This document shows positions 17,842 through 57,952 of a DNA stretch of 64,000 nt, in pieces. Under the pieces are notes generated by a model that was not told the origin of the DNA, searched no databases, and saw only the letters and a list, made by a program, of their open reading frames with translations. Each line of letters starts with the position of its first letter. Positions within the stretch are counted from its first letter, which is position 1. This DNA comes from Klebsiella pneumoniae. GTDB lineage: Bacteria; Myxococcota_A; UBA9042. The stretch lies in the NCBI GenBank assembly GCA_945889325.1, contig CAMDBH010000002.1, forward strand, positions 39,242-103,241, given 5' to 3'. A program made the translations under genes and the position numbers.

Positions 17842-17864
17842 ACAGTCGCGTTTTAGGAGTTCTC

Positions 17865-42963: not shown

Positions 42964-43853
42964 TCGGTCACCCCGACGTGGACCGGCCGATCGCGCGGCG
43001 TGTTGGCTGCGACGTCAGACAGGGTCCCGAAAGCAAAGCGAGAAAATAGCCGTTCGATCTTCTGTTCCACACCTGCCAGACCGACATAGTATTTGAATCG
43101 GCGCTTGAACGGCAGATCCATGCGCGGCTGATCGGCCACCAATTCGCGCGGATGAATGTACGCGATCACAGGCTGTTGCGCGTTTTCGGCGGCAGCAAAA
43201 CTTTGTTCGATAAACCAAGAAGGCAGCAGTCGCAAATAACCGCCGCCTTGAAAAACCAGCTGCTGACCGGCGAAATTGCGCGGCACCGTCGGCACTTCGA
43301 CAATCGTTTGGCCGTTGGGCAAAATCAAGTCAAATGGGCGGTTGCGCTGCAACAACAAGCCGCCATGGGCGCGGTTGGCTAAAAATAGGGAAGCATCGAG
43401 CGCAATCCCGCGCGAGGCCAAAACGCCAAACGCCCACGTGTCGGCATCGCCGATCGAAAAGCCAGGCGCGCGAAAGGCTTTGACATCTTTGCCTATAGCT
43501 CGGCTGATTGCGGCAAGCGACAGATCCAGGTCGCGGGCAAAACCGTCGCGGCCCAACTGCGGCACCAATTGGTGCAGGTGCCCGTGCGATCCGATTTCAT
43601 GGCCGCGTTCGGCAATCTGCGCCAAAAGTTCCGGAAAACGTTCGGCAATCCAACCCAGCGCAAAAAACGTGCCGCTAAACCGGTGTTTTTGCAGCAGGTC
43701 CAACATTTTTTCAGTGCCCGCAACCACGTGCGACGGCAATTTGTCCCAAGCGGCGAGGTCCGGCGCGGCGGCGTATTCCAAGATGTGAAACCAATCTTCG
43801 ACGTCGACGCTCCAGCCGTGAACAACCCGATGGTTTTGTGCAGCAGTTGGCAT
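42960..43853 (-). CDS. polysaccharide deacetylase family protein (NodB homology domain)
   Basis: VDVEDWFH…; FSGTFFALGWIAERFPEL…GHEIGSHGHLH. Confidence 0.75.
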   Translation of the reverse strand: MPTAAQNHRVVHGWSVDVEDWFHILEYAAAPDLAAWDKLPSHVVAGTEKMLDLLQKHRFSGTFFALGWIAERFPELLAQIAERGHEIGSHGHLHQLVPQLGRDGFARDLDLSLAAISRAIGKDVKAFRAPGFSIGDADTWAFGVLASRGIALDASLFLANRAHGGLLLQRNRPFDLILPNGQTIVEVPTVPRNFAGQQLVFQGGGYLRLLPSWFIEQSFAAAENAQQPVIAYIHPRELVADQPRMDLPFKRRFKYYVGLAGVEQKIERLFSRFAFGTLSDVAANTPRDRPVHVGVTE

Positions 43854-43898: not shown

Positions 43899-45269
43899 CT
43901 AAGACTCGGAATCCACACCCGCAGAAAGGGCTTGCATGCGCACGGTTTCCGTGAATTCCTTTTGCCCGAGCAAGGGCAAGCGCAATTCGATGATCAGTCC
44001 GCCGCCGGGGCGCGGCAATGCGCGGGCAGTGCCGCCATGGGCTTCTGTGATGCGCTTGACCAAGTACAGGCCCAAGCCGGTGCCGCCGGTGTTGGCGTTG
44101 CGCGAGGCATCGGTGCGAAAAAATGCTTCAAATACACGGGTACATTGTTCAATCGTCAAACCAGGACCGCGATCCATAATCCGATAGACGCCGCCCAGCG
44201 GATCGCGTTCCGATTCAATGCGCAGCGCCTTTTCGATCACATAGCCATCCGCCGCGTCACCGTCGCCAGCGTGTTGCACAGAATTCTCCACCAGCGTTGA
44301 AATCACGCGGTCCAACGCATTTTCATCGCCAGACACGATAGCGTAGTCGCTTTTCAAGTCGAGTTCGACGGTAAACCCTTGTTTTTCCAAACGATGACGC
44401 TCTCGGTGCAAGACGTTGTCGATCAATTCATCGATGCAAACTTCCGCGCGCTGCAGCAACACGCGGTCCACGCCGACGCGCTGCGCTTCAAGCAGCCGAG
44501 AAATGTGCCGTTCGAGCAGGGCCGTTTCTTCATGAATATCATTGAGTAACTGTTCGCCTTCGCTGGGTTTGCGCCGGTCGCGGCCCGCAGGGGCAGCTGC
44601 GCGCGCCGCCTCAAGTTCAATGCGGATGAGCTCAAGCGCAACGGCGATACGCGCCAAAGGCGAACGCAATTCATGCGATACACCGGCCAGCAAATCCTTT
44701 TGCGCTTGTAGCACCCGCGAAATGCGATCGGCCATCGCGTTCAAGCCGCTGCCGAGTTGGCCCAGGTCGTCAGGTGGATCGACCGGCGCACGGGCCGAAA
44801 GGTCGCCCATGCCCAGTTCCGACGCGACTTCACGCAGTTGACTGAGACGGGCGTTGAAGCGTTGCGACAGAGAAAGCGAAAGCGCCATCAGGCCAGCCAC
44901 CGCAACACCGGCGATCACAAGGGGAATCACCACCAGAAGCGCCTCAGCGCTGGTACCTTCGCGCGCCAATAGGACGCCTGCGACCGCGATGGCCAACAGG
45001 CCGACAATGCCAACGCCGACCACGCCGCGCTCGCCCCGCGTCAGCCCCACCGCCGTGCGAGCGGGGTGCGCGTCAAGCGTCGGTCGTTCAGCCACCGACT
45101 GCCGCGGTCGATTCGGCCGAAAGCATATAGCCGGTGCCCCAAATCGTCTTGATGTATTTGGGACTCCGCGAATCTTCTTCGATTTTTGCCCGCAGATTCT
45201 TGACGTGCACGTCGATCGAACGGTCGTAAGCCGCGTAGCCAACGCCGCGCAGCATGTCCATGAGCGCAT
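43899..45269 (-). CDS. two-component sensor histidine kinase (TM-HAMP-HisKA-HATPase). True start is probably near 45100, since the ORF overlaps the response-regulator gene.
   Basis: HAMP (…LGQLGSGLNAMADRISRVL); H-box VSHELRSPLARI; G-boxes (DRGPGL…GTGLGLYLV). Confidence 0.75.
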   Translation of the reverse strand: MRSWTCCAALATRLTTVRSTCTSRICGQKSKKIRGVPNTSRRFGAPAICFRPNRPRQSVAERPTLDAHPARTAVGLTRGERGVVGVGIVGLLAIAVAGVLLAREGTSAEALLVVIPLVIAGVAVAGLMALSLSLSQRFNARLSQLREVASELGMGDLSARAPVDPPDDLGQLGSGLNAMADRISRVLQAQKDLLAGVSHELRSPLARIAVALELIRIELEAARAAAPAGRDRRKPSEGEQLLNDIHEETALLERHISRLLEAQRVGVDRVLLQRAEVCIDELIDNVLHRERHRLEKQGFTVELDLKSDYAIVSGDENALDRVISTLVENSVQHAGDGDAADGYVIEKALRIESERDPLGGVYRIMDRGPGLTIEQCTRVFEAFFRTDASRNANTGGTGLGLYLVKRITEAHGGTARALPRPGGGLIIELRLPLLGQKEFTETVRMQALSAGVDSES

Positions 45270-45822
45270 CGCGGCTCAGCACTTGGCCTGGATAGCGCAA
45301 AAAGCAGCGCAAAAGGTCGAATTCTGTGGTCGTCAGCAGTACGGTTCGCCCAGCGACAATCACATCGCGGCGCGCGCAATCCATGCTGATATCGGCGATT
45401 TTCAGCATCTCGGCTGCGCCGGTGGCTACGCCACCTTCACTGCGCCGCAGCACGGCTTTGATGCGCGCAACCAACTCCCGAGGATTAAATGGTTTTGCCA
45501 AGTAATCGTCGGCACCCAGTTCCAAGCCGACAATCCGATCGTTGTCCGTGCCTTTTGCCGTGAGCATCACCACCGGTACCTTGGAGGTCGCGCGCACGCG
45601 GCGCAGGACTTCAAAGCCGTCCATGCCGGGCAGCATAACATCCAACACCAGAAGATCAAACACTTCTGACGTCGCGCGCCGCACCCCCTGCAAGCCATCG
45701 GTCACCGTGAAAACTTGAAAGCCTTCTGGCTTCAACAGCCGTTCCAGCAAAGCGCCCAAGCGCACATCGTCGTCAATAATGAGGATTCGAGCCAAGGTGT
45801 CTCCATTTCGCAGCTGCTGCAC
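45088..45822 (-). CDS. OmpR-family response regulator
   Basis: Receiver domain (ILIIDDD…DLLVLDVMLPGMDGFEV…) plus winged-helix output (…YIKTIWGTGYML). Confidence 0.85.
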   Translation of the reverse strand: MQQLRNGDTLARILIIDDDVRLGALLERLLKPEGFQVFTVTDGLQGVRRATSEVFDLLVLDVMLPGMDGFEVLRRVRATSKVPVVMLTAKGTDNDRIVGLELGADDYLAKPFNPRELVARIKAVLRRSEGGVATGAAEMLKIADISMDCARRDVIVAGRTVLLTTTEFDLLRCFLRYPGQVLSRDALMDMLRGVGYAAYDRSIDVHVKNLRAKIEEDSRSPKYIKTIWGTGYMLSAESTAAVGG

Positions 45823-46015: not shown

Positions 46016-46918
46016 TCAGCGCGGTTTTAGCTCCAACGTGCGCTGCGAGGCTTTGGGGGCGCGCAGTTCATCCGCACCCGCGGCGGCGCGCATCGATAGC
46101 GGTCCGTTGACCCACTGCACCTGCATCGCAATTTGCTTTGCAGCATCCCACGTTGCAAAACCAACGTCGGTAAGTTGATCCAAGCGCGTGGACGCATTGG
46201 CCAGATCCACGCCAGCGACAATTTTGCCGCGAAGTTGTTCAATTTCATCTTGAATCTTCTGCTCTTCTACATCATCTGGCGCCACGGTCGCCGCGGGTAG
46301 AAAACCCGAAGGATCGACCTTGCGGCGCTCGATCTTGCGCGCAATTCGGCCCGCGGCCCAAGCCAGCAGTAGCTGTTCATGCCCATGATTTTTAGGCACA
46401 AGTTGCAGCAGCTTTTCGGCGTCCGCTTGTTCGCCAATCACGCCGAGCACAACAATGGCCTTGAAGCGGAAAAATTCATCTGGGCGCTCAAGCAACTGCC
46501 ACACTGCCGCAACGGCCTCGGGCGCCTTGGTGCGAGAAATACCTGCCAGCGCCCCGAGTTGCACACCGAGGTCGCGATCTTTCAACGCGTCAATCAGCGC
46601 CGGAACCACGCGCGGATCCTCAATTTGTGCCAGTAGTTCCGTAGCTTTGCGCCGTTCGTCGTTGCTGCCGCCGTGCAGGTCGCCCATCAACGTCGGCACG
46701 GCTTCAGCGCCCAAATGCACCACTTTGACCGTAGCGATGCCCGGCGTGCCCGGCGCATCTGCAAAGCGATCGGCAAGCAGGCGCGGATTCTCAACTTTTT
46801 GCTGATACACCACAATGGACGCGTAAACGATGCCCGCCAAGCCAGCCAGCCCGACTGCCACGAGTGCCAAACGAGCCCAAGCCGTTGGATTAAAAGAGCG
46901 ATCGTTTAGAGCAGGCAT
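46016..46918 (-). CDS. membrane-anchored HEAT/PBS-lyase-repeat protein
   Basis: N-terminal TM helix; repeated ~30-aa motifs (AVPTLMGDLHGGSNDERRKATELLAQIEDPRVVPALIDALKDRD…). Confidence 0.55.
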   Translation of the reverse strand: MPALNDRSFNPTAWARLALVAVGLAGLAGIVYASIVVYQQKVENPRLLADRFADAPGTPGIATVKVVHLGAEAVPTLMGDLHGGSNDERRKATELLAQIEDPRVVPALIDALKDRDLGVQLGALAGISRTKAPEAVAAVWQLLERPDEFFRFKAIVVLGVIGEQADAEKLLQLVPKNHGHEQLLLAWAAGRIARKIERRKVDPSGFLPAATVAPDDVEEQKIQDEIEQLRGKIVAGVDLANASTRLDQLTDVGFATWDAAKQIAMQVQWVNGPLSMRAAAGADELRAPKASQRTLELKPR

Positions 46919-46927
46919 CGTCGCTGG

Positions 46928-49900
46928 CTATTTGCAAGGCTCTGTTACCTGAATGTCATCGAGGTAAATGCCGCTGTATTTGTCATTGCCTTTGGCGTCA
47001 AACGAATCAAAAGAAAAGGTTATCTGGATCGTCTGGCCTTTGTACTTGGTCAAATCGAGCTTGTACGACTTCTTGACCTTGAAATCACCGGCCTTCATGT
47101 CTTTTTCCTTGTTGTCCTGCGTGCTTTTGGCGAAGATGACTTCTTTGCCGGCCGCCGTGGCAACCGTGATGTGAAAGTCCTCAAACAGCGGTTCGATGTC
47201 GATCCAAGCGTCAAATTGCAACCAGGCGCTTTTCTTCACGTCAGCCGAAAGCAAGATGTTGTTGGCGATCAAGGTACCGGCCACGCTTTTGCCGGGGTCG
47301 TCGTAATTGGTCTGCGCCGCATTGCCAAAATAGGCTTCATGGCCGCCGTTCAGGTATTTGTGCAATACGATCTGCCACTTGACCGCACCGGAAATCGGGG
47401 ATGCGGTCCAACTGACAAATTTGCTGGCCTCAAAAGTCTCCGACGGCAAGGCGTTGCCAGGTACACAGCAGGTCGGTCCGGGCGTTGCAGCCTCGTTGCA
47501 TTTGAACGTTTTTGGCTCAGAGAAGCTGCAGAAATACTTCTTACACACGTCCGGATTGACCGGCGCACATTTCGCGTCCTCAAGGCATTCGATCGGGCTG
47601 CAGAGAGTTTGCACGAGCAACTTGTCGACGTATGCGCCCTCAAAGTTGTTGTTGGTGTCGGTGCCGGCGTCGAACTCGAATTGCAGTTTGACGGTTTTGC
47701 CTTTCAGGCTGTCGGGTACGGCGACGACTACAGACTGGTATTTGCCGTTGGTGCTGCCGCCGATGCCATACGAAGACCAAGTCCAAACAGAATTTGTCTT
47801 GTCGTTGCTATCGGCCGGATTGTAAAAGCCGACGCGCATGCGATCGATCACCAGCCCAAGGGGCGGCAAATTGAACACGGTCGGATCGTTCCACTCTGTC
47901 GACAGTTTCAATTGAAAAGTCAGCACTGTCGTGCCGTTGGCCGGAATTGCAACGTTGCCGCTGCGCACGATCGCGCCTGGAACGGTGGTGCCGGCATTGT
48001 AGGTGCCGTCCTTGCCGAAGTTGAGCGAATAGGTGCCCTCGTTGGAGCTAAGCGCCGTCGCGTTCCATGTGATCGTGGCGTTGTACGGTTTGCCCACGCC
48101 GCCTTGCGCGTTGCCCTTGAGCGTGGTGGCGACCCAGCCTTCTGGCAATTTGCCCCCGTTTTCAAAGTTTTCAGCCGCCACCGATGGGTTGTCCGAGCAG
48201 CATTTGGGGTCCGTCAGCGTGTGCGTGCAAGACTGGGCGGCAGCATCGCATTTGTCGGTCGTGCAGCTGCTGCCGTCGTCGCAACCGGCGTCGTTGAGGC
48301 AGCAATCTTTTTTCGGCGTCCAAAAGCATTTCTTGTCGGCCGTGCAACCGGCAACCTGACAAGGTTTTGCGGGGCCGCAATCGTTGTCGGGACTTGGATC
48401 TTCGCACACGATGCCGCTACAAGCGACATCGACTTTGAAGTCGTCGATCGCGACACCCTTGTTGGTGTTGGCGTTGGCGTCGCCCGCATCAAATGCGAAG
48501 CAAACTTGGACCTTTTTGCCAGCGTATTTGTCCAAGTTCACTTTGATGGAGGTAAATTTGCCTTCGGTGGTGCCCTTGATCGCGTCTGAGGACCAGATCG
48601 TGTCGGTATTGAAGCCGCTGACCTTCAAATACACGCGCAACTCGTCGAGTTTTGGCATGTATCCGCACTTGCCCTTGTAGCAGTCCTCGCCGGGGTTGCA
48701 GTCTTTGGCGGCGGTGGCGATCGTGCATGCTTTGGCGCTGCCCGGCGGATTGACGTACTTGCTCGGATCCTGACCCGACCATTCCGTGGCCATATTCACC
48801 TGAAATTGCAGCAGGTTGTACAGCGTACCGACGCTCAACTGCACTTCTTGGCTGCAAACAGTCTCGGCCGGACCTTTGGTTTTCGGCAAAACCAAGGGAT
48901 CGTCGTAGCTGGTGCCCGACGCGTTGCCGAAGTAGAGCGCGCCGCTGCCTTTGGTGCCGCCCGATGCCGAGGCGTGCCACTGCACTGCTTTGGAATTAGA
49001 GTCAAAATGCGTCCATGAAGAAATGCCGGCGTCAAAAGTGTCGCTGGCGGCATTTTTGGCGGTGCAGCACGTCGGATTCTTGTCGTCCGGCACGTTGGTG
49101 CAGGCGCCTTTTTCAGCGCCTACGATGTTGCATTGGTCAACTGTGCAGTCGTTGTTGTCGTTGCAGTCGGGGCTGGCCAAGCAGCACCCCGGCTCCTTGT
49201 CGAAAAAGCACACGCCCTTGCCGGACAAGTTGTCGTAAAATGTACAGGAGTCCGGCGTGCAGCTGCTGGCGTCGGCCTTGCACGGCGTCGCGGCGTCGCA
49301 TTGTTGGAAACCGGCAGATTCCGGCTTGTCCGGTTCGGCAATGCACAGCGATTCCAGAGAGATGTCGTCGATGTACACGCCTTCATAGTTGTTCTTGGCG
49401 CCATTGTTGGTGTCAAAAATCCACTGGAATTTGAAGCTGTTGCCAAAGCCTGCCAAATTCACGATGTGGTGCTGCCAGCCGCCGGTCGATTTGCCAATCA
49501 CAATCGAGTCCCAAGCGACCTTGTCGTTGACCTTGAGCGTCAACAGATCTTTTTCCTTCACGCAGGCCATGCCGGCCTTTTGCTCGCTAAGGTCCAAACA
49601 ACTTTCACCTTGCTTGCAGCCCACGCAGCCGACGCCGACCTTCAAACCGCTGGCAACGAAAGTCGGCTCAGCCGCGACCCACAGCCAGTAATGCAAAATG
49701 AATTGCTTATTTTCGGAACCGGCCGGTACGTTGATCGAGGGTGAATCCAAGGTCGCGAAAATCGTCGCGCCCTGGCCGCCGCTGATGCATTGATTGGCAC
49801 CGACGGACGACGAATCGTAATTGTAGCATTCGTTACCCAAGTACATGGAAGTTTTGCCGTTGTGTGCGCGCTTGTTTTCCAAATGCCAACTGATGTTGGT

Positions 49901-50473
49901 GCCGGCCGGATTGACCTTGCCGGCAAAATTCTCCATAGAATTCTGCTCAAAACCCAAGTTGAGCAAGGTGACCTGACCGGGGCACGCGCCGACGATCGGT
50001 GCGTATTCGCAAGCGCCTTTGGCGACATCGCAACTGTTGGTGGTCAATGGATTCTTGTCATCGCAATCCTTGTTTTCACAGCATTTGTCCGGGTTTTTTT
50101 CCAGAACGCACTGTTTGTCCGCGTTGCAAGTGGCTGTTTCGCAGATCTTGGGTGAAAGTTTGGCGATGCAAAACGCGTTATCGGGGCATACGTCGTTGGG
50201 GCCAGTATCCTTTGGCACATCAGGGATTTTGGCGTCGTCCTTGGTTTCGATGGCGGGGCCGGTGTCAGTGGTCGCAGGCCCGCTATCGACGCCGGTGTCG
50301 TCGGTGTTGTTGACTTGTGTGTCGACGGCATCGCCTTCCGTGTCCCCGGCCGGCGCCGGGGCCGGCTCCACCGGCGTGCTGCAGCTAGCGCAACTCAACG
50401 CGGCGGCACTGGCCGCGATGGCCAAAAAATTGCAAAATAATTCATTTTTTTGATAGATTGAGCGCGACATCAT
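46928..50473 (-). CDS. giant lipoprotein paralog 1 (1181 aa): Dictyostelium-type CTDC cysteine-knot repeats alternating with MAM-like domains
   Basis: Lipobox (ALSCASC). Knots CC…DCDDKNPLTTNSC…, DCNDNNDCTVDQC…, GCDDGSSCTTDKC… Domain ends such as VYIDDISLESLC / AYVDKLLVQTLC / IYLDDIQVTEPC (MAM-like). Confidence 0.75.
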   Translation of the reverse strand: MMSRSIYQKNELFCNFLAIAASAAALSCASCSTPVEPAPAPAGDTEGDAVDTQVNNTDDTGVDSGPATTDTGPAIETKDDAKIPDVPKDTGPNDVCPDNAFCIAKLSPKICETATCNADKQCVLEKNPDKCCENKDCDDKNPLTTNSCDVAKGACEYAPIVGACPGQVTLLNLGFEQNSMENFAGKVNPAGTNISWHLENKRAHNGKTSMYLGNECYNYDSSSVGANQCISGGQGATIFATLDSPSINVPAGSENKQFILHYWLWVAAEPTFVASGLKVGVGCVGCKQGESCLDLSEQKAGMACVKEKDLLTLKVNDKVAWDSIVIGKSTGGWQHHIVNLAGFGNSFKFQWIFDTNNGAKNNYEGVYIDDISLESLCIAEPDKPESAGFQQCDAATPCKADASSCTPDSCTFYDNLSGKGVCFFDKEPGCCLASPDCNDNNDCTVDQCNIVGAEKGACTNVPDDKNPTCCTAKNAASDTFDAGISSWTHFDSNSKAVQWHASASGGTKGSGALYFGNASGTSYDDPLVLPKTKGPAETVCSQEVQLSVGTLYNLLQFQVNMATEWSGQDPSKYVNPPGSAKACTIATAAKDCNPGEDCYKGKCGYMPKLDELRVYLKVSGFNTDTIWSSDAIKGTTEGKFTSIKVNLDKYAGKKVQVCFAFDAGDANANTNKGVAIDDFKVDVACSGIVCEDPSPDNDCGPAKPCQVAGCTADKKCFWTPKKDCCLNDAGCDDGSSCTTDKCDAAAQSCTHTLTDPKCCSDNPSVAAENFENGGKLPEGWVATTLKGNAQGGVGKPYNATITWNATALSSNEGTYSLNFGKDGTYNAGTTVPGAIVRSGNVAIPANGTTVLTFQLKLSTEWNDPTVFNLPPLGLVIDRMRVGFYNPADSNDKTNSVWTWSSYGIGGSTNGKYQSVVVAVPDSLKGKTVKLQFEFDAGTDTNNNFEGAYVDKLLVQTLCSPIECLEDAKCAPVNPDVCKKYFCSFSEPKTFKCNEAATPGPTCCVPGNALPSETFEASKFVSWTASPISGAVKWQIVLHKYLNGGHEAYFGNAAQTNYDDPGKSVAGTLIANNILLSADVKKSAWLQFDAWIDIEPLFEDFHITVATAAGKEVIFAKSTQDNKEKDMKAGDFKVKKSYKLDLTKYKGQTIQITFSFDSFDAKGNDKYSGIYLDDIQVTEPCK

Positions 50474-50684
50474 TCCCCCTGACCAAAAGTCGAAACAGCC
50501 CGTTGCAGGCGTTTGGTTCAAACCATTCAACGCGCTCCCGCGCCGCTCAAGCGCCACTCCCATGGCGTTCAGACGGCGCCCCCGGGGCGCACCCTTTAAG
50601 TCTAACCCTGTCACAGCGAGGATGCAATTGTATAAGCCGCATAAATGTTCGCTGAATCGCAGCGCCAAAGGACCGCGGGCAGCG

Positions 50685-52997
50685 TTAAGGCGGGCAACCT
50701 TCCGCGCCGCTAAGCACGTAAAAACACTTGCCATTTGCGGCGCAAGTGTCGGTCGTGCACACGTCTTTGTCGTCGCAATCGCTGTCGACGGCACAGCAAG
50801 CCGGTATCTTGCCGCAGGCACAAGCGTTGTCCAAACACACGGGCGCCTCACAGGCACCGCAGACCTCGGCCTTGCACAAATCGATGCAAGCACAGCCGGT
50901 TGCGGTGCACTGCGGCGTTTGGCACGGGCCGCAGTTCAGATTTTTGCATTCGCCGTCCAAATAACAAGGCTTTTTGCTGCAGGCGATTTTGACGACAAAG
51001 TTGTCGACGATCGGGCCCAATTTGTCATTGACCTCGCCGTCGCCCGCGTCAAAGCTCAAGCAAACTTGAACGGTTTTGCCTTTCCAAGTATCCAAACTGA
51101 CCACAATGGGCATCCACGCCCCTTCGGTGGTGCCGGAAATGACGTCGCTGCTCCAAGCTTCATGAAAAGCGTTTTCAAAATAGACCTGTACAGCAAAATA
51201 GTCGAACTTGTTCTTGCCGACCAAAGGCGGATTCTTGTAATTGGCGGGCAACATGCCGGTCCATTCGGTTTCCAAAAACAGGTCAAATTGCACTAAGTTG
51301 AACAGAGTCCCTTCTTTGAGCTTGAGCTGAGGCGTGCACAAGGTGCCTTTGGGGCCAACTTCTTTGCCCAACGCAGCATCGTCGTATTTGCCAAAAGTTT
51401 CATCAGAAAATTGCAGCGCTTGCGAAGGCGGCGTCTCCGGCCCTCCCTTTGGATGCAAACGCCATTTGACCACGCCGCTGTTGCTGCCCAGCGCCGTCCA
51501 CAAATCGATGGCTGCGCCCTCAAAATCGTTGTTTTCCAGAATTTCTGACTTGCAGCACGCGGGTTTGGAGGCATCGGGCGTTTGGTTGCATTGGCCAGCC
51601 GTGCAGGTGTCGATTGTGCAGGCGATGCCGTCGTCACATTCCGAATTCAGCGTGCAACAGCCCGGTTTCTTATCAAAAAAGCACACGCCGCCGTTGGAAT
51701 TCTGGTATTGCGTGCACACGTCGGCGCTGCAGCCGTTGTTGTCGTCTGGGCACGGCGTTTGATCGTCGCAGACTGTGCCGGCCGTGGCGCAAATGGTTTC
51801 TACAACCACGTCGTCGAGATACACACCTTCGTAGGCATTTTTCAAGCCCGTTCCCGTACTAAAAAGCCATTGTAATTTGATGGTTTGTCCCGAATAGGCC
51901 GACAAATCGATGGCCATATGCTGCCACGCGTTCTTGGTCGTCTTGCCGATTTGCGTCGAATAAAACACCGCTTTGGCCGGCTGATTTGCCGTAAGCACCT
52001 GCAGCGACAACACATCTTTTTCAGGCAAGCATTGCGACGTGCCGTTGATGTTGACGCAGGCGCTAATCGCGTTGCACGGGGTTTTGCACACGCCCTTGGG
52101 CAAGGTGTCGGCATAAGGCGGCTCAGCGTCAAGGAAAAGCCAAAAGTGCAGTTCAGCCTTCTTGTCCTTGGGCAGTGCGTAGTCGGCCGTCGTCAACTGG
52201 GTGGACACCGCCATGGCGTCCTTGCTGGATTTGCAGCCGTTGTCGGGCGACATTGAATTGTCATAGGTATGACAGGCATTGCCAAAATACAGTGAAGTTT
52301 TGCCGCCATGTGCGCGGTACGTACTCGCCTGCCAGTGCACGCCCAAGTTGGTCGGCCCTTCGAGCGGTGTGAGCGACTCAAGGGTCCCGTCTTCAAAACC
52401 TGCTTTAGAAAACGTAACTTTGCCGCTGCAACAGTTGACCAGCGGCGTGTTGATGCACAAATGGCTGATGTTGTCGCATTTGTCGGTCGTGCATTCCTTG
52501 ATGTCGTCGCAATCGGCATCGCTGCAACAAGCGTCGGGTTTGGGCACCGCTTTGCAAACACCTTTGTCACAAGCTGCTTGTTGGCAGGGCGTCAATACCA
52601 ATTGATCCACGCAAGTTGTGGCGGTGACGCATTTGCCGATGTCCAACGGCTGTACTTCAAGACCGACGTCCTTGACGGCGTCGACTGGCACGACAATGTC
52701 GATGACATCCTTAACGGTTGTATCCAGTGTTTCGACCGCTTTGCTGTCTTGTTCGTCCGGCTGATCGGTGTCCTCTGACGGCAATTCCTCGTCGGTTGCG
52801 TCGCTATCGTCCTCTACGTCGGCCAAATCTGTACCGTCATCAATGACTTCGGCCGGCGGCGGCGTTTCCGCCGCTGGACTGCAGGCCAACATCAAAGTCC
52901 ACGAAAATAGGAAAATGGCCAACAGCGCCCAGCGCGGCGCTGGATTCACAGCTGACAGCATGGCACACAATCCCGTGTATTTCTTCATTAATCGCAC
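50685..52997 (-). CDS. giant lipoprotein paralog 2 (770 aa): CTDC cysteine-knot repeats plus MAM-like domains
   Basis: Lipobox (TLMLACS). DCDDIKECTTDKC, ECDDGIACTIDTC, DCDDKDVCTTDTC; YLDDVVVETIC. Start overlaps the stop of paralog 3 by 10 nt. Confidence 0.75.
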   Translation of the reverse strand: MRLMKKYTGLCAMLSAVNPAPRWALLAIFLFSWTLMLACSPAAETPPPAEVIDDGTDLADVEDDSDATDEELPSEDTDQPDEQDSKAVETLDTTVKDVIDIVVPVDAVKDVGLEVQPLDIGKCVTATTCVDQLVLTPCQQAACDKGVCKAVPKPDACCSDADCDDIKECTTDKCDNISHLCINTPLVNCCSGKVTFSKAGFEDGTLESLTPLEGPTNLGVHWQASTYRAHGGKTSLYFGNACHTYDNSMSPDNGCKSSKDAMAVSTQLTTADYALPKDKKAELHFWLFLDAEPPYADTLPKGVCKTPCNAISACVNINGTSQCLPEKDVLSLQVLTANQPAKAVFYSTQIGKTTKNAWQHMAIDLSAYSGQTIKLQWLFSTGTGLKNAYEGVYLDDVVVETICATAGTVCDDQTPCPDDNNGCSADVCTQYQNSNGGVCFFDKKPGCCTLNSECDDGIACTIDTCTAGQCNQTPDASKPACCKSEILENNDFEGAAIDLWTALGSNSGVVKWRLHPKGGPETPPSQALQFSDETFGKYDDAALGKEVGPKGTLCTPQLKLKEGTLFNLVQFDLFLETEWTGMLPANYKNPPLVGKNKFDYFAVQVYFENAFHEAWSSDVISGTTEGAWMPIVVSLDTWKGKTVQVCLSFDAGDGEVNDKLGPIVDNFVVKIACSKKPCYLDGECKNLNCGPCQTPQCTATGCACIDLCKAEVCGACEAPVCLDNACACGKIPACCAVDSDCDDKDVCTTDTCAANGKCFYVLSGAEGCPP

Positions 52998-55900
52998 TTG
53001 TTGAGTACCTTGACGTCGTCCACGAATACACCCTTGGTTCCGTTGGCGATGCTGTCACCCGTATTGAAGAGGAACTCGATCTGAATTTCTTTGTCTTTAT
53101 AGGGACTCAAGTCGAATTTCATTTCTTGCCAGTTGTTCATTTGGAACCCAGCGCTGGATTTTTTCCACAGCTGCGCCTTGCCGCCATTGGCGATAATTGA
53201 AACGGTCAGGTCGTCGTACGTGCCGCCTTCGGTGTCCATGTACAAATAAAATTGCAGGGTTGCGACGGTTGTGCTCGGCAACGTCAATTTGCCCCAAGTG
53301 GCGGTACCGTTGCTGGCACCAAAGTCATAATTTCCCGCACCGGGATCGCCGTAATACAGCGCGCCCGGCGGCGTTTTGCTCTCACTGGCGCTGCCCCACA
53401 ACTGCCAGCCCTTGGCCGCGCCGGCGCTGTTGCTGAAAACAAAGCCTTTTGGGTCGCCCTTGTCAAAGTCGTTGCTGTACAACTCTGCGGTGCAACAGCC
53501 GGGCGCACCTGTGCTTTTGTGCACGCAGGCCTTGTTCACGCAGGTGTCGATGCTGCATTTCACTTCGCCGTCGTCGCAATCTTTGTCGGCCGCGCAGCAA
53601 GTGTTGGCGTTGCTGCAGACGTTTTTGCTGCAAGTGTCTACGGTGCAAGCGTTTTTGTCGTCGCACTGGGCCGAACTCAAGCAACAGCCGCCAATCGGGC
53701 TGAACACGCATTTGCCGCCTGGTCCTGAACAAGTATCGATGGTGCAAGCATTATTGTCGTTGCAATCGCCATTGCCCATGCAGCAACCGACAATGGGTGA
53801 GAAGGGGCAAAATCCGTTGCTGCAAGCATCCGAAGTGCACAAGTTGCCGTCGCTGCAATCAGCCGCCGTTTTGCAGCAGTTGTTTGGGTAGACGCAAAGG
53901 CCGTCGCTACAGACAGTTGCCGTGCATTTGACGTTGTAGCCGGGGTTGCAGTTGATCGTCGGCGAACATTTTTTGGCTTGGCAAGAACTGCTCACGATCA
54001 CGTCGTCCAAATAAATCTGCGTGTTGGTCACGTTGCCGTTAAAAGCTAGTGTCACTTCAAAGAAAACCTGAATCGCCTTACCGGCCAGCGGCGACAGATC
54101 GATGGAGCTCGCGACCCAATTGTTGACCAAGACGTTGGAATTTTTGGTCGCCGTCAGGTTGAGCTGCGCGCCGTCGATAACCGTGTAAATTCGGACGTTT
54201 AAAGCAGCATTTGGCGTCACCGCCTGCAACTGAAACGTCAATGTCGCGTCTTTGCCGGACATCAAATTGAAAAAACCAGTCGCGGCCGTGGCCACAAATT
54301 TGGGCGAATTGGACACCGAATAACTTTCCAACTTGGCATGGCCAAACGCTAAAACCCCAATGTCGCCGTTCTGCCCCTTGACTGCTTTGTAGTGCCAGCC
54401 CACGCCCGGATCGGCGTTGGTGCTGGTCAGGGTAAACCCTTCGTCGCTGCCGCCAAACGTCGCGCTCATCGGTGTGGGCGAACAGCAGCCGGGTGAGGAC
54501 GACGAAGTGTAAACGCATTTGCCTTTGCTGCAGGCGTCTTTGGTGCAAGGGTTGAAGTCGTCGCAATCGCCGTCGCCGCTGCAGCAGCTGTTGTTGAAGC
54601 TACAAGCGCCGTCATTGCAGCTGCCAATCATGCATGGATCCGATGACTTGCATTCCGCATCGCCCTTGCAGCAGGTGTTGCCGTGCAGGCATTGGCCGCC
54701 GGGTTTGGGGCAAACATCGGCTGTGCAAGGGTTTTTGTCGTCGCAGTCGGTTTCCGACAGGCAGCAGTCCGGTTTGTTGGAATGCACGCACGCGCCACCG
54801 GCAACTGGGCATAAGTCCAATGTGCAAGCTTGCTTATCGTCACAATCCGCCGCTGACGCGCAGCAATCCGCTTTGAGCTTGTGGCTGCAAACGGGCAAAC
54901 CGGCAGGCGCTGCGGCGCAGGAATCTGTGGAACAGGCATTGCCGTCGTCGCAATCGCTCACATCGCCGCAACACCCGGAAGACACGGACACATCGTCGAT
55001 GTAAGCGCCTTCAAACGAGTTGGCCACCGCGTCCTTGCTGTCAAAGGCGAACAAAAGTTGAACTGATTTGCCGGCATACGCAGCGGCGTCGACTTCCACG
55101 TGTTGCCAAACGCCGTGGGTGCTGCCTTTGATCGTGCCGCTGGACCAGATTTCCTTGCTCGCCGCGCCGTCGACCACCGTGAGGGTAAGCACGTCTTGAT
55201 CGGGTGTTTCTTCGGTGTCCAACCAGAGCCAAAACGCGATATGCGGCAACACGCCGACATTGCTTGGCACTGCGAGTGGCGGCAAAGTCGCCGTCGCCGC
55301 GACTTTCTTGTTGTTGAAATAGTTGTGGGTCAGCGGATCGCCAAAATACAAGCTTTTGCCGCCGGAGATGTTGCGCGCGCCGTCAAAATTCCAACTGATG
55401 CCGGACTTGTAGACGTCGACAATCGCCACCCCGTCAGCCGTGCTGTCCAGGCCGATAATCCCAGTAACACTGCTGAGTTTGGTCTGCGCGACGTTGGGCA
55501 GGCAGGCCAGACAGCTGTACTTGTCACTGCTGCCGCCGGCTGGGAAGCAGCCAACTTGATCCGCACCCAAATCGACCGCACACACGTTGGCTTTGGCGGT
55601 CCAACTGCATTTTCCTTGATCACAGGTGCCGGTAGCGCACGGAATTTTGCAGTCAGCGGAAACCTTGCACAACGAACTGTGGACGGTTTTGCTTATAGGT
55701 CCGGTGTCTTGCACGATATCTGGGCTATCGATTGGCGTGTCCGGTGGTGTTGCGACGTCTTCTGGTGCATCTTCCGGCGCCACATCGGGCGGCGCGGCGT
55801 CGACCGCGCTGTCTGCCAAGATGTCGCTAAGCGAGTCTGCTGGGGTGTCGGCCACTTCTTGGACGCCCGTATCGCTGACTTTACTGTCTTTTTCTGAATC

Positions 55901-56044
55901 GGCCGCTGGGATGTCCGTGGCGACAGCGTCGTCGGGCGCTTGGGTCACTTCGGCGGTGCCACAGCCGCAAACGCTCAGGCAGGATAGTGCCAGTGCAATC
56001 ACAAGGTTCTGCTGATTGACCCAAGACAAGGGGCGCATCTTCAT
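52988..56044 (-). CDS. giant lipoprotein paralog 3 (1018 aa): 10 CTDC cysteine-knot repeats plus MAM-like domains
   Basis: Lipobox (LSCLSVCGC). DCDDGNACSTDSC, DCDDKQACTLDLC, DCDDKNPCTADVC, DCDDFNPCTKDAC, CSDGNLCTSDAC, DCNDNNACTIDTC, QCDDKNACTVDTC…; AYIDDVSVSSGC, VFVDDVKVLNKC. Confidence 0.75.
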   Translation of the reverse strand: MKMRPLSWVNQQNLVIALALSCLSVCGCGTAEVTQAPDDAVATDIPAADSEKDSKVSDTGVQEVADTPADSLSDILADSAVDAAPPDVAPEDAPEDVATPPDTPIDSPDIVQDTGPISKTVHSSLCKVSADCKIPCATGTCDQGKCSWTAKANVCAVDLGADQVGCFPAGGSSDKYSCLACLPNVAQTKLSSVTGIIGLDSTADGVAIVDVYKSGISWNFDGARNISGGKSLYFGDPLTHNYFNNKKVAATATLPPLAVPSNVGVLPHIAFWLWLDTEETPDQDVLTLTVVDGAASKEIWSSGTIKGSTHGVWQHVEVDAAAYAGKSVQLLFAFDSKDAVANSFEGAYIDDVSVSSGCCGDVSDCDDGNACSTDSCAAAPAGLPVCSHKLKADCCASAADCDDKQACTLDLCPVAGGACVHSNKPDCCLSETDCDDKNPCTADVCPKPGGQCLHGNTCCKGDAECKSSDPCMIGSCNDGACSFNNSCCSGDGDCDDFNPCTKDACSKGKCVYTSSSSPGCCSPTPMSATFGGSDEGFTLTSTNADPGVGWHYKAVKGQNGDIGVLAFGHAKLESYSVSNSPKFVATAATGFFNLMSGKDATLTFQLQAVTPNAALNVRIYTVIDGAQLNLTATKNSNVLVNNWVASSIDLSPLAGKAIQVFFEVTLAFNGNVTNTQIYLDDVIVSSSCQAKKCSPTINCNPGYNVKCTATVCSDGLCVYPNNCCKTAADCSDGNLCTSDACSNGFCPFSPIVGCCMGNGDCNDNNACTIDTCSGPGGKCVFSPIGGCCLSSAQCDDKNACTVDTCSKNVCSNANTCCAADKDCDDGEVKCSIDTCVNKACVHKSTGAPGCCTAELYSNDFDKGDPKGFVFSNSAGAAKGWQLWGSASESKTPPGALYYGDPGAGNYDFGASNGTATWGKLTLPSTTVATLQFYLYMDTEGGTYDDLTVSIIANGGKAQLWKKSSAGFQMNNWQEMKFDLSPYKDKEIQIEFLFNTGDSIANGTKGVFVDDVKVLNKCD

Positions 56045-56248
56045 CACTCCAAAGCAACAAGACACAACTGGGAACTTTTGGCTCCGCGCCCATGCGAGGT
56101 CAAGCCCAAGCTACGGTTCACCCCCACCGCCACGCGCTTTCAAGCGCAGCCGGACGCTGCACTGTAGCATGCCAGCGCCCCGTGTATCAAATCGGCGGAC
56201 GGCCGCAAATATGGGCGCGAGGTATGCCGATCGCCGGCCCGCAACCTT

Positions 56249-57952
56249 TCAAAATCCAAAGCGAACTGCGCCTTCGACCCGCCACGCATTGTCGGCCGCC
56301 AGGCCTTGGGGCGTGGCCAGCGCGCCGCCCGGAAACAAGTACGTCGCTCGCAGCAATGCGCCGGTGCCGCTGGGCTGGCGGTATTCTAAGCTCAATTCGG
56401 GCTCGAAGCCGAGCAAGTTGCCCTTGCCCGGTGTGGCTTCCGAAGACGCCGCTACTGCCGCTAACAAGCCGAGTTCGAGCGCCAAGCTATCGCCGTGGCC
56501 CTTGTCCAGCAGTTCATAGCGATACGCGGGCTTCAAATACCAGGCATTGGCCACGGCACCAATAAGGTCGCGAAATAACAGACCATCCACGCGGTAATTG
56601 CGGTGGAAGTGAAAGCCCGAGGAAAACGTTTTGGGCGAGGCGCTGAGTTCTGCCCCGTTGCGCAGATTGTCGGTGTCCAACACGCCAAAACCGCCGCTGC
56701 GATCGCCGCTTGCAAAGCCCGCGTCGACCAAAACGTCGCCCAATCCCCGTTGCCATTTTGCCTTGAAAGCGGCACCGGCAGACAGCAAAAGTAGCGGCGA
56801 TTCTGTGCCCGATCGCGGGTCGGTTCGGCCAAAACTGCCGTAAATACCGGCCGATTCTCCCTGCAATCGCAGGGGCGATCCGCCGAGGGTTCCGTTCCAA
56901 TCCAACGCCAGTTGCGCGATGATCAAGCGGCCATTGCGTGGAACTAGCTGATCGCATGACGCATTGGCGATGCAGTCTTCATGGTCCGCCCGACTCGCCA
57001 CATCCTGTGTCTGGTATTGCGCGGCGGCTGACCATTTCAGGCCGGGTTCGCCGTTCAATTTACCGCCTGTGATTTCAGCCACCCAGCGTGTGACATCGGC
57101 CGCGTCCTCCAAGCCATAGGCAATCGAACCAGTGCCGGTTTGGACGATCCGAGATTCAGCTTTATGATCAAAAGCATTCGGCAGTGTGCTGGCAAATGGC
57201 AACGTGCCAAGTGAATCGCGCGCCAACATCAGGCGCAGGCCGAACAAGTCGCCGCGCAGCGACACGCGGTCGACGTCGGACTGAAAATCGCCCAGCAAGT
57301 CGCCGCCTGCGTTGCGCAACATCCCCAAGCCGAAGTGATCGCCTGTGCGGCCGATTTCCAGTTCCGCCAGCCCAAACAAGCGCGCGTGCACCCAAAGTCG
57401 GCGAACGGCGGCCGCATTGCGCACGTCGCCTTGGCTGGGCATGCCGCTCAGGTTTTCAACAGCGCGCGCTTCTCTGTCCGCGATCGTCGGGTTGTTGTCG
57501 CCGCCAAGCACAGTTGCGCCTGCCAAGTCGATTTGGCTATTGATGTCAAACCATTCACCGATATGCAGCGTCGGATCGATGCGCAAGCGCAGGTCGGCTG
57601 TGGCCATTTTGCCGCCGCTGGCACCTGGCAGCACGCTGTCGCTGCCGTGGCGCAGGTCCAAACGCGGCGGCAATTGCTGAACATCTTTGACCAAACGGAT
57701 GCCGCTCAGCATTTCAGTACGCGAGCGAAAGTGGCCGTGCAGGTCCAGAGATACCAGCGGCGAAATGCTGGGCAGGGAGGCCGGCAGCAGGATTTCGGCT
57801 GGACTTGCTGTGTTGGTTGGCGCGGTTGCAAGGGGTGACGGGGCGGCCTCGCCAGCCAGCGCGACGCGCGCGCACAGCGCAGTCGCGACCGCGAGCACGA
57901 CGCGTACCTGTGCGCTGGGGCGGGTGGAAAAAGCCGAGAAGAACAGGGGCAT
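56249..57952 (-). CDS. outer-membrane beta-barrel protein of unknown function
   Basis: Signal peptide (…VLAVATALCARVALAGE). C-terminal …GAVRFGF. Gly/aromatic-rich alternating pattern. Confidence 0.5.
   Translation of the reverse strand: MPLFFSAFSTRPSAQVRVVLAVATALCARVALAGEAAPSPLATAPTNTASPAEILLPASLPSISPLVSLDLHGHFRSRTEMLSGIRLVKDVQQLPPRLDLRHGSDSVLPGASGGKMATADLRLRIDPTLHIGEWFDINSQIDLAGATVLGGDNNPTIADREARAVENLSGMPSQGDVRNAAAVRRLWVHARLFGLAELEIGRTGDHFGLGMLRNAGGDLLGDFQSDVDRVSLRGDLFGLRLMLARDSLGTLPFASTLPNAFDHKAESRIVQTGTGSIAYGLEDAADVTRWVAEITGGKLNGEPGLKWSAAAQYQTQDVASRADHEDCIANASCDQLVPRNGRLIIAQLALDWNGTLGGSPLRLQGESAGIYGSFGRTDPRSGTESPLLLLSAGAAFKAKWQRGLGDVLVDAGFASGDRSGGFGVLDTDNLRNGAELSASPKTFSSGFHFHRNYRVDGLLFRDLIGAVANAWYLKPAYRYELLDKGHGDSLALELGLLAAVAASSEATPGKGNLLGFEPELSLEYRQPSGTGALLRATYLFPGGALATPQGLAADNAWRVEGAVRFGF

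Follow-up and report, generated by a model that had tools for sequence, protein, structure and literature searches.

Three tandem genes in the 64,000-nucleotide window (the whole stretch of DNA that we analysed) encode large, cysteine-rich lipoproteins, referred to here as A, B and C, that form an old, conserved and fixed set under purifying selection, not a recent expansion. The reading that we favor, with modest confidence, is that the locus is a conserved cell-envelope set of one uncultured Myxococcota clade, whose products would be non-enzymatic, multivalent outer-membrane binding lipoproteins of the adhesin or lectin type, probably associated with a beta-barrel encoded next to them.

Gene organization

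The three open reading frames occupy positions 46928-56065 and all lie on the minus strand. Gene A is found at 52988-56038 (minus strand; 1016 aa with the gene-caller start, the start of 56044 given originally being an ATG two codons upstream), gene B at 50685-52988 (minus strand; 767 aa), and gene C at 46928-50470 (minus strand; 1180 aa). The longest open reading frame for C reaches 50893; we used the 50470 start, at which the protein begins with MSRSIYQ, the same start as in ortholog P0001. The start ATG of B shares bases with the A stop TAA (TAATG), and because A and B are translationally coupled in this way, the three proteins probably act as a set. A promoter and terminator scan found no intergenic terminator and no sigma-70 promoter above shuffled controls. 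An FHA/sigma-54 activator gene is located at 60590-62017 and prompted a scan for the sigma-54 consensus, which returned 62 matches (56.6 expected) and none in the relevant minus-strand intergenic regions.

Protein A consists, in order, of a lipobox signal peptide, an acidic Asp/Pro/Thr-rich linker (aa 27-123), a Cys-rich N-module, MAM1, five CTDC knots, MAM2, a degenerate pre-knot with four CTDC knots, and MAM3. Protein B has a lipobox signal peptide, an acidic linker, a pre-knot and knot, MAM1 (with an inserted Cys loop), another pre-knot and knot, MAM2, and finally a Cys-rich stretch with a knot. In protein C, the lipobox signal peptide and linker are followed by three units of pre-knot, knot and MAM, and then by a pre-knot and MAM4. 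The C-terminus of each protein is the end of its last domain, which is MAM-like in A and C and a knot in B.

CTDC knots and MAM-like domains

The literal knot pattern of the original prediction matched a single site, and the knots were instead counted with a relaxed pattern together with an HMM trained on the window's own knot copies. This count gave 15 canonical CTDC knots, nine in A (5+4) and three each in B and C, all with the six-cysteine spacing CC-x(4,5)-C-x5-C-x4-C-x(4-9)-C in tandem. The four to ten knots per protein proposed earlier thus became 9, 3 and 3, and the proposed total of 25 or more is attained only when some 9-10 degenerate cysteine-rich pre-knot modules are added. The Pfam model Dicty_CTDC (PF00526; gathering threshold 27 bits) matched A with 54.3 bits over six stretches (1.2e-14) and C with 30.1 bits, so that the CTDC assignment is upheld by Pfam for these two proteins but not for B, which had no Pfam CTDC match at E<=1. 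The three B knots scored i-E values of 1e-9 to 1e-10 against the window-built HMM, which includes these same copies. The first array of A, five tandem knots (aa 356-518; 54485..54973, minus strand; i-E 3.5e-13 to 7.7e-8 with our HMM), was found in 48 of the 48 A orthologs examined, where the HMM sees 3-5 copies. The second array, recognized by the pattern and our HMM, comprises the degenerate pre-knot and four knots (aa 686-848; 53495..53983, minus strand). Across the C orthologs, the cysteines are invariant.

The MAM-like domains number nine (three in A, two in B, four in C), are 167-216 aa long, and are all mutually homologous (leave-one-out HMM, E 5e-13 to 1e-41). Pfam InhA-like_MAM (PF20773; gathering threshold 26.9 bits) was recovered above threshold in all three proteins, with 38.8 bits in A (9.3e-10), 36.2 bits in B (5.6e-9), and 47.5 bits in C. 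Only A (42.5 bits) exceeded the cutoff of 30 for the NCBIfam model choice_anch_J (NF038128), with 25.4 bits for C and 17.5 bits for B; one A ortholog is already called a "choice-of-anchor J domain-containing protein" by NCBI. The C-terminal signature [VIA]YhDDhxhxxxC that had been proposed for these domains was read by eye: its [VIA]Y-h-DD core is present in about seven of the nine, and variant ends occur in A-MAM3 (VFVDDV), B-MAM2 (PIVDNF) and C-MAM3 (AYVDKL). At E<=1, neither the animal MAM family model of Pfam, nor any other Pfam domain, nor any peptidase or other catalytic family matched A, B or C, and a sequence search of A and C against PDB chains returned nothing significant.

We modelled one unit of C comprising a pre-knot, a CTDC knot and MAM2 (309 aa; 48416..49342, minus strand). 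Fold comparison recovered the jelly-roll, MAM-type beta-sandwich that the original prediction had anticipated, with the MAM domains of the receptor phosphatases PTPRM and PTPRK as best matches. The knot part of this model is of low confidence (pLDDT 55-66), and it is thus from the cysteine pattern alone that we infer a role for the CTDC knots, probably as rigid, protease-resistant spacers.

The CTDC repeat is not specific to Dictyostelium: a Chitinophagales MAG protein carries 59 copies (1409 bits), and T9SS cargo carries the repeat too. It is also one of the N-terminal modules listed for teneurin-like proteins of bacteria (bioRxiv 10.1101/2025.11.11.687626), and a 2021 survey counted it with the families without known structure (PMC8078820). 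Because both CTDC and MAM are ordinary in bacterial surface proteins, their co-occurrence alone is no sign of eukaryote-like biology or gene transfer. The Dictyostelium extracellular proteins on which PF00526 was founded use the same six-cysteine repeat as a tandem extracellular module; compared with these and with other bacterial CTDC proteins, the arrays here are short (1-5 knots) and placed between MAM-like domains. The likeness to the animal MAM domain is one of fold only; identity to animal MAM domains (PTPRM/PTPRK, neuropilin, enteropeptidase) and to the Porphyromonas gingipain K1 "cleaved adhesin" is 14-21% and the domain context is different. The proteins covered by NF038128 and PF20773 include the Bacillus immune inhibitor A metalloproteases. 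Immune inhibitor A has an M6 peptidase, whereas A, B and C have no M6 or other catalytic domain, and we rejected their identification as InhA proteases despite the domain in common. Unlike choice-of-anchor J and InhA-like proteins, A, B and C carry the domain two to four times per protein, interleaved with CTDC knots, and have an N-terminal lipid anchor in place of a C-terminal sorting signal.

Lipoprotein signals and predicted location

A lipobox is present in all three proteins, as had been predicted. The PROSITE-type pattern [LIVMFWSTAG](2)-[LIVMFYSTAGCQ]-[AGS]-C, with six uncharged preceding residues and a basic n-region (1-2 Lys/Arg within the first 8 residues of A, B and C), places the predicted lipid-modified cysteine at Cys20 or Cys26 in A, Cys36 in B, and Cys27 in C; among the orthologs, it was also found in 11 of the 12 for C and 37 of the 48 for A. 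Cys26 is favored over Cys20 because C-G-T is kept in the A orthologs. The residues at position +2 after this cysteine are Gly, Ser and Ala, and those at +7 are Thr, Thr and Pro. In M. xanthus, Lys at +2 sorts lipoproteins to the inner membrane and Ala at +7 to the matrix (PMC3222651). Since A, B and C lack Lys at +2, an outer-membrane or surface location is most likely for them by these M. xanthus rules, which are here extrapolated to a distant lineage. The tethers are 70-100 residues long, acidic, Pro/Thr-rich, and poorly conserved.

The barrel and neighboring genes

Immediately upstream of A is the gene for OMP567 (56249..57952, minus strand), an outer-membrane, 18-stranded beta-barrel related to TIGR04551. 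It aligned to positions 1-513 of the 519 in the NCBIfam model TIGR04551 (188.7 bits, E 1.9e-55; cutoff 300) and is a clear homolog lying outside the curated family boundary. JGI calls several OMP567 homologs "TIGR04551 family", a myxobacterial family for which the sources searched gave no assigned function. TIGR04551 was the only match from Pfam and NCBIfam at E<=10, and a PDB chain search gave nothing significant. By fold match, OMP567 is an 18-stranded barrel of the OprD/Occ/AlgE type; identity to the OprD/Occ, MOMP, AlgE and E. coli ChiP channels is 7-13%, and it is about 150 residues longer than these, with long low-confidence loops.

Beyond C, a gene for a 300-aa HEAT-repeat protein with a hydrophobic N-terminal segment (46016..46918, minus strand; HEAT_2 1.3e-13) starts 9 bp past the C stop, and it also comes after C in L001-L005, L015 and the P0086 locus. 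Downstream of it are genes for an OmpR-family response regulator (RR) and a HAMP/HisKA sensor kinase (HK) (43899..45822, minus strand; NCBIfam), the closest models for the kinase being BaeS, CpxA and EnvZ. The order OMP-A-B-C-HEAT-RR-HK is kept in L001, L002, L015 and the P0086 locus, and two more MAGs have neighboring NCBI locus tags for OMP and A (KC502_02945/02940 and CMH53_10575/10570). The link between OMP and A is not universal: L014 has a distant A homolog alone, without OMP, B or C genes, and in L003, where C-HEAT-RR is present, the 10 kb upstream contain no homolog of A or OMP. Synteny in the clade reaches housekeeping genes (MutY, patatin, PGM), and gene order alone is therefore weak proof of an operon or functional link.

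Upstream of OMP567 lies the gene for TM754 (58303..60567, minus strand), a polytopic membrane protein identified only indirectly, via its homologs, as a divergent GT-C (PMT_2/ArnT-like) glycosyltransferase. Of these homologs, 37 of 40 match PF13231 PMT_2, and the family profile matches ArnT (5ezm) at E 0.005; TM754 itself had no direct Pfam or NCBIfam match at E<=10 and nothing significant in a PDB chain search. Its gene precedes the OMP gene in L002, L015 and the P0086 locus; in L001 this position lacks it, which makes its connection with the cluster weaker.

Age of the paralogs and selection

Pairwise alignment confirmed that the three proteins are paralogs. B aligns collinearly with the first ~760 aa (the N-terminal two-thirds) of C (35% identity, E 3e-116), and A is 25-36% identical to B and C. 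For each of the three, other Myxococcota MAGs contain 1:1 orthologs arranged in the same order. Full-length orthologs number about 60 for A (40-56% identity) and 12 for C (33-83% identity), and identity is lower among paralogs (25-35%) than among orthologs (38-56%). In the 48 A orthologs examined, length is near-constant and the knot layout is near-fixed (one block, then the second).

Gene-wide dN/dS of A, B and C against a close relative was 0.08-0.13, inside the span of the neighboring genes (0.014-0.138), as estimated from one close pair with dS of ~0.8-0.9, near saturation. Most folded segments were at 0.02-0.10, including the MAM-like domains (0.04-0.10), the first knot array of A (0.044), and its pre-knot and second array (0.033), and three cysteine modules of C were at 0.13-0.25. 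The only relaxed parts were signal peptides and linkers (0.15-0.96), where all of the top-scoring 40-codon windows were located, none being in a folded domain. Between MAGs, A, B, C, the barrel and the HEAT protein are 38-50% identical, as against 74-83% for the response regulator, 69-77% for PGM, and 64-74% for patatin. Recent duplication and diversifying selection were rejected on the basis of the 1:1 orthologs, the low identity among paralogs, the near-fixed layout and the low dN/dS.

Proposed function

On the reading that we favor, A, B and C would be exported by Sec, lipidated at the lipobox cysteine, and held in the outer membrane, each hung on its acidic tether. Beyond the tether, disulfide-knotted CTDC modules would alternate with MAM/CBM-type beta-sandwich domains. 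The proteins would most likely be multivalent binders, adhesin- or lectin-like, whose binding modules number 3, 2 and 4, respectively. They probably cooperate with the 18-stranded OprD/AlgE-like barrel encoded just upstream, and the adjacent OmpR-type two-component system may control their expression. To our knowledge, 18-stranded porins are not known as partners of such lipoproteins. The putative ligand may be a conserved polymer, either a glycan or exopolysaccharide or some other polymer of a surface or of prey; given how strongly the binding domains are constrained, this fits better than a self-recognition partner that is polymorphic.

A narrower form of this explanation, possible but distinctly less probable, is an exopolysaccharide or matrix module in which an AlgE/Wzi-like barrel exports or holds an anionic polysaccharide and the lipoproteins tether or organize the polymer through CBM-like domains. 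Some barrel homologs match Pfam Alginate_exp, the invariant arginines at i and i+2 on OMP567 strands (R76/R78, R122/R124) are compatible with a basic pore lining, and the conserved neighborhood includes a DUF3473-type polysaccharide deacetylase and a GT-C glycosyltransferase. However, the proximity of the deacetylase may just mirror general synteny, no polymerase, flippase, PCP/OPX or sugar-nucleotide genes occur among the neighbors scanned, and the barrel fits the Occ/OprD and MOMP uptake porins equally well or better than AlgE. Another alternative is nutrient capture, in which the lipoproteins at the surface would catch a polymer or oligomer and pass it to a substrate-specific Occ/ChiP-like channel, much as lipoprotein and transporter are paired in Sus-type systems. 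We consider this unlikely. The CBM-like domains on the lipoproteins are consistent with it, as is purifying selection on the binding domains, which is expected with a fixed ligand, but the cluster is without a hydrolase, periplasmic binding protein or inner-membrane transporter, and we are aware of no Occ-type porin that has surface lipoproteins dedicated to it.

Comparison with TraA/TraB

The closest analogue, by architecture only, is the outer-membrane-exchange receptor TraA/TraB of M. xanthus; the defining features of TraA were not found. TraA combines a lectin-like beta-sandwich with nine Cys-rich repeats, five of them in tandem, and a lipid-type anchor, and its envelope partner, TraB, is co-transcribed with it; the repeats were proposed as a rigid stalk, and the TraA authors noted their resemblance to PF00526 of Dictyostelium PsiA and PsiF (PMC3325183). 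The system described here is likewise myxobacterial and combines a beta-sandwich, a Cys-rich repeat array, a predicted lipid-type anchor and a putative envelope partner, and the number of repeats in protein A is also nine. It differs in having MAM/CBM-like binding domains where TraA has PA14, repeats that match PF00526 and not TIGR04201, an N-terminal lipobox and not a C-terminal MYXO-CTERM tag, an 18-stranded porin-like barrel as putative partner in place of an OmpA-domain protein, and three paralogs with alternating, repeated binding domains. With no match to the PA14, TIGR04201 or MYXO-CTERM models at E<=1 (Pfam, NCBIfam), membership of the TraA family was rejected.

The same parallels could speak for homotypic cell-cell adhesion or kin recognition, in which the MAM-like domains bind themselves between cells as animal MAM domains and TraA do. 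The MAM domains of PTPRM and PTPRK, the best fold matches, are homophilic adhesion domains. We nevertheless regard this role as improbable given the missing TraA models, the different partner, and proteins that stop at their last domain with no space for a sorting tag. In addition, the recognition domain of TraA is reported to be highly polymorphic (PMC6372800), whereas the MAM-like domains here are constrained (dN/dS 0.04-0.10). Least probable of all is the recently expanded, diversifying surface or secreted family of the original prediction, which would suit three paralogs in tandem and the faster divergence between MAGs of A, B, C, the barrel and the HEAT protein than of most neighbors, but is largely refuted by 1:1 orthologs more alike than the paralogs, by the near-constant length and knot layout in ~48 A orthologs, and by dN/dS values that peak outside the folded domains.

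Implications

The names "Dictyostelium" and "MAM" mislead in this context, as CTDC and MAM belong to the ordinary repertoire of bacterial surface proteins. Tandem paralogs that bear repeats need not be diversifying either; the three examined here are old, keep a fixed layout, and evolve under purifying selection. More speculatively, the TIGR04551-like barrel and the three CTDC/MAM lipoproteins (their tethers perhaps O-glycosylated by the GT-C enzyme) might together make up one undescribed outer-membrane surface complex, a porin-anchored, multivalent lectin or adhesin organelle for contact with prey, cells or matrix. Such a complex, if real, would be a functional parallel to TraAB or Sus-like systems built from unrelated parts. 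If the reading that we favor holds, the locus would represent a conserved, unstudied envelope module of an uncultured Myxococcota lineage, comprising a barrel, three binding lipoproteins, a HEAT protein and a two-component system, and would be the second case, after TraA, of myxobacterial lectin-like domains carried on cysteine-rich repeats.

Domain composition of the three predicted lipoproteins

An ORF search of the window showed that 46928-56065 is occupied by three minus-strand ORFs, which encode the paralogous putative lipoproteins A (52988-56038; 1016 aa with the start used by gene callers), B (50685-52988; 767 aa), and C (46928-50470; 1180 aa with the MSRSIYQ start of its 83%-identical ortholog P0001). 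The G+C content of this region (55-58%) is similar to that of the remainder of the window. The ATG of B overlaps the TAA stop of A (TAATG), which suggests that the two genes are translationally coupled.

The original prediction called CTDC and MAM-like domains in these proteins, and this was correct: Pfam Dicty_CTDC scored above threshold in A (54.3 bits, six stretches) and C (30.1 bits), and InhA-like_MAM did so in all three. The NCBIfam choice-of-anchor J cutoff was exceeded only by A, and no catalytic or further domain was found in scans against Pfam and NCBIfam. The architecture was also as described, but the knots had been overcounted at 25 or more, or 4 to 10 per protein. The literal pattern proposed for the knot matched one site; a relaxed pattern combined with an HMM trained on the window's own copies was needed, and by this definition there are 15 canonical six-cysteine knots, nine in A (5+4) and three each in B and C. 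About 9-10 additional degenerate cysteine-rich "pre-knot" modules lie mostly before a canonical knot. In leave-one-out searches, each of the nine MAM-like segments (167-216 aa; three in A, two in B, four in C) was recovered by an HMM of the remaining eight (E 5e-13 to 1e-41).

A unit of C comprising a pre-knot, a CTDC knot (modelled with low confidence), and the second MAM-like domain was used for fold comparison. Its best matches were the PTPRK and PTPRM MAM domains (scores of 14.6 and 14.3), the gingipain K1 adhesin domain (14.2), the neuropilin MAM domain and reelin (both 13.4), many carbohydrate-binding modules (12-13), and InhA2 (10.4). The predicted structure bears out the MAM-like jelly roll, but bacterial adhesin and carbohydrate-binding modules have this fold too. 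Dicty_CTDC was among the repeat families without known structure in a 2021 survey (PMC8078820).

Lipoprotein signal peptides had been proposed for all three proteins, and each has a PROSITE-type lipobox and a basic n-region, features shared by 11 of 12 orthologs of C and 37 of 48 of A. The lipobox is followed by a linker of 67-97 residues that is rich in Asp, Pro, Thr, and Ala and lacks Arg. In Myxococcus xanthus lipoproteins, Lys at +2 marks the inner membrane and Ala at +7 marks the matrix (PMC3222651). Since both residues are absent from A, B, and C, we infer by analogy that these proteins are sorted to the outer membrane.

Gene neighborhood

The order of barrel, A, B, C, HEAT, response regulator, and kinase genes is the same in the window and four homologous loci (L001, L002, L015, P0086). 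The barrel gene OMP567 (56249-57952, minus strand), directly upstream of A, encodes a predicted 18-stranded outer-membrane protein that gives a full-length alignment to NCBIfam TIGR04551 (E 1.9e-55; 188.7 bits, below the 300-bit cutoff) and has no Pfam match. The literature and databases searched describe no function for this family. Its homologs conserve a DHFGxG motif (D205-G210) and arginines at alternating strand positions (R76/R78, R122/R124, R184/R185); these arginines may form a basic pore lining as in AlgE or Occ channels.

Directly after C in every locus examined, starting 9 bp away in the window, is a gene for a HEAT-repeat protein with a hydrophobic N-terminal segment (46016-46918, minus strand), followed by genes for an OmpR-type regulator and a BaeS/CpxA/EnvZ-like kinase. 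The HEAT protein matches NCBIfam models only weakly, the nearest being those of phycobilin lyase and NblB-type HEAT proteins. Downstream of the kinase gene, both on the minus strand, are a DUF3473 polysaccharide deacetylase (42960-43853), conserved in L001, L002, and L015, and a FadL/TodX-type outer-membrane transporter (41647-42963), present in L002 and L015 and not found in L001.

Upstream of the barrel gene, and absent from this position in L001, is TM754 (58303-60567, minus strand), a polytopic membrane protein of 754 aa. It had no direct match in Pfam, NCBIfam, or PDB. PMT_2 was matched by 37 of 40 homologs, and the family profile matches ArnT (E 0.005). The family has 1233 relatives in the representative library, with D39, E82, K88, R217, and D279 invariant and E40 nearly so. 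By these profile matches, TM754 is a divergent GT-C glycosyltransferase; that it glycosylates the Thr/Pro-rich lipoprotein tethers is speculation. An FHA-domain sigma-54 activator (60590-62017, minus strand) lies upstream of the cluster and is conserved there in the P0086 locus too. The intergenic regions of the cluster contain no sigma-54 promoter consensus.

Synteny in this clade is long-range, extending to MutY, patatin, and PGM, so gene order taken alone is a weak guide to function. In L014, a distant A homolog (34% identity) is solitary; in L003, C is accompanied by HEAT and response regulator genes, and the 10 kb upstream contain no homolog of A or of the barrel. Locally, co-function is best supported by the A/B overlap, the 9-bp C-HEAT gap, and NCBI locus tags that place the barrel and A genes side by side in other MAGs.

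Orthology and selection

Pairwise alignment supported the paralogy proposed for the three proteins. B aligns collinearly with the N-terminal ~760 residues of C (35% identity, E 3e-116), and A is 25-36% identical to both. These values are lower than those between orthologs in the window and L001 and L002 (A 41-50%, B 48-49%, C 38-39%), which indicates that the duplications predate the split of these lineages. C has 12 full-length relatives (33-83% identity) and A has ~60 full-length orthologs (40-56%) out of at least 152 matches; every named source is a MAG labelled Myxococcales, Myxococcota, "Deltaproteobacteria," or "Pseudomonadota," and a genome-collection scan found more Myxococcota MAGs with relatives.

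The 48 A orthologs compared vary little in length (1016-1092 aa), cysteine content (7.1-7.9%), and two-block knot layout. Nei-Gojobori dN/dS against L015, a single close pair with dS near saturation (~0.8-0.9), was 0.082 for A, 0.080 for B, and 0.130 for C, and 0.014-0.138 for neighboring genes. In the same comparison, all MAM-like domains and most knots gave 0.02-0.10 and three cysteine modules of C gave 0.13-0.25, with relaxed values (0.15-0.96) confined to signal peptides and linkers. As envelope proteins usually do, A-B-C, the barrel, and the HEAT protein change more quickly from MAG to MAG than most neighbors. The one-to-one orthologs, fixed layout, and low dN/dS largely refute the diversifying tandem expansion that had been suggested; A-B-C is an ancient, fixed set.

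Known systems and potential function

At the domain level, A, B, and C belong with the choice-of-anchor J/InhA-like-MAM proteins, the name NCBI already gives to one A ortholog; the InhA peptidase is absent from them. Among known systems, TraA/TraB of M. xanthus is the nearest functional analogue. TraA combines a lectin-like PA14 domain with nine Cys-rich TIGR04201 repeats, for which a rigid-stalk role has been proposed, and is anchored through MYXO-CTERM; its gene is co-transcribed with that of TraB, and the authors of the TraA study noted that the repeats resemble Pfam PF00526 of Dictyostelium PsiA and PsiF (PMC3325183). Pfam and NCBIfam scans of A, B, and C found none of the defining features of TraA, which rules out membership in that family and leaves A-B-C as an analogue.

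We propose that A, B, and C have no enzymatic activity and are attached through a lipid anchor, probably to the outer membrane and with surface exposure. Flexible acidic tethers would carry the MAM/CBM-like binding modules (three in A, two in B, four in C) and the disulfide-knotted CTDC modules separating them. The three proteins probably act as a set with the co-encoded barrel as partner. The strong constraint on the binding modules points to a conserved ligand, for instance a glycan, an exopolysaccharide, or another polymer that is conserved, and away from a polymorphic partner in self-recognition. Candidate roles are AlgE-like polysaccharide export with tethering by the lipoproteins and Occ/ChiP-like nutrient capture by barrel and lipoproteins; TraA-like homotypic adhesion is a further candidate.

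Cysteine-rich repeats are not confined to this cluster. Two more large Cys-rich proteins in the window have Cu-binding_MopE (PF11617) repeats, one of 1245 aa (30722-34459, minus strand) with a Kelch beta-propeller and a bacterial TSP3 repeat and one of 1188 aa (17685-21251, plus strand); in the P0086 locus, a 1191-aa MopE-motif protein is close to the cluster. Bacteria use CTDC repeats widely: they co-occur with NHL or TSP3 repeats, P0173 joins them to VWA, DUF11, and a T9SS tail, and they are listed among the N-terminal modules of bacterial teneurin-like proteins (bioRxiv 10.1101/2025.11.11.687626). A 3138-aa ORF in a Chitinophagales MAG (JAHDEE010000001.1, locus L010:7454-16870, plus strand) has 59 Dicty_CTDC repeats (1409 bits), far more than any window protein. 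This "Dictyostelium" repeat is thus used heavily in Bacteroidota, which poses the question of the direction in which CTDC repeats moved between bacteria and dictyostelids. Rather than a eukaryote-like oddity or a diversifying family, A-B-C is a conserved, uncharacterized envelope module of known bacterial domain types.
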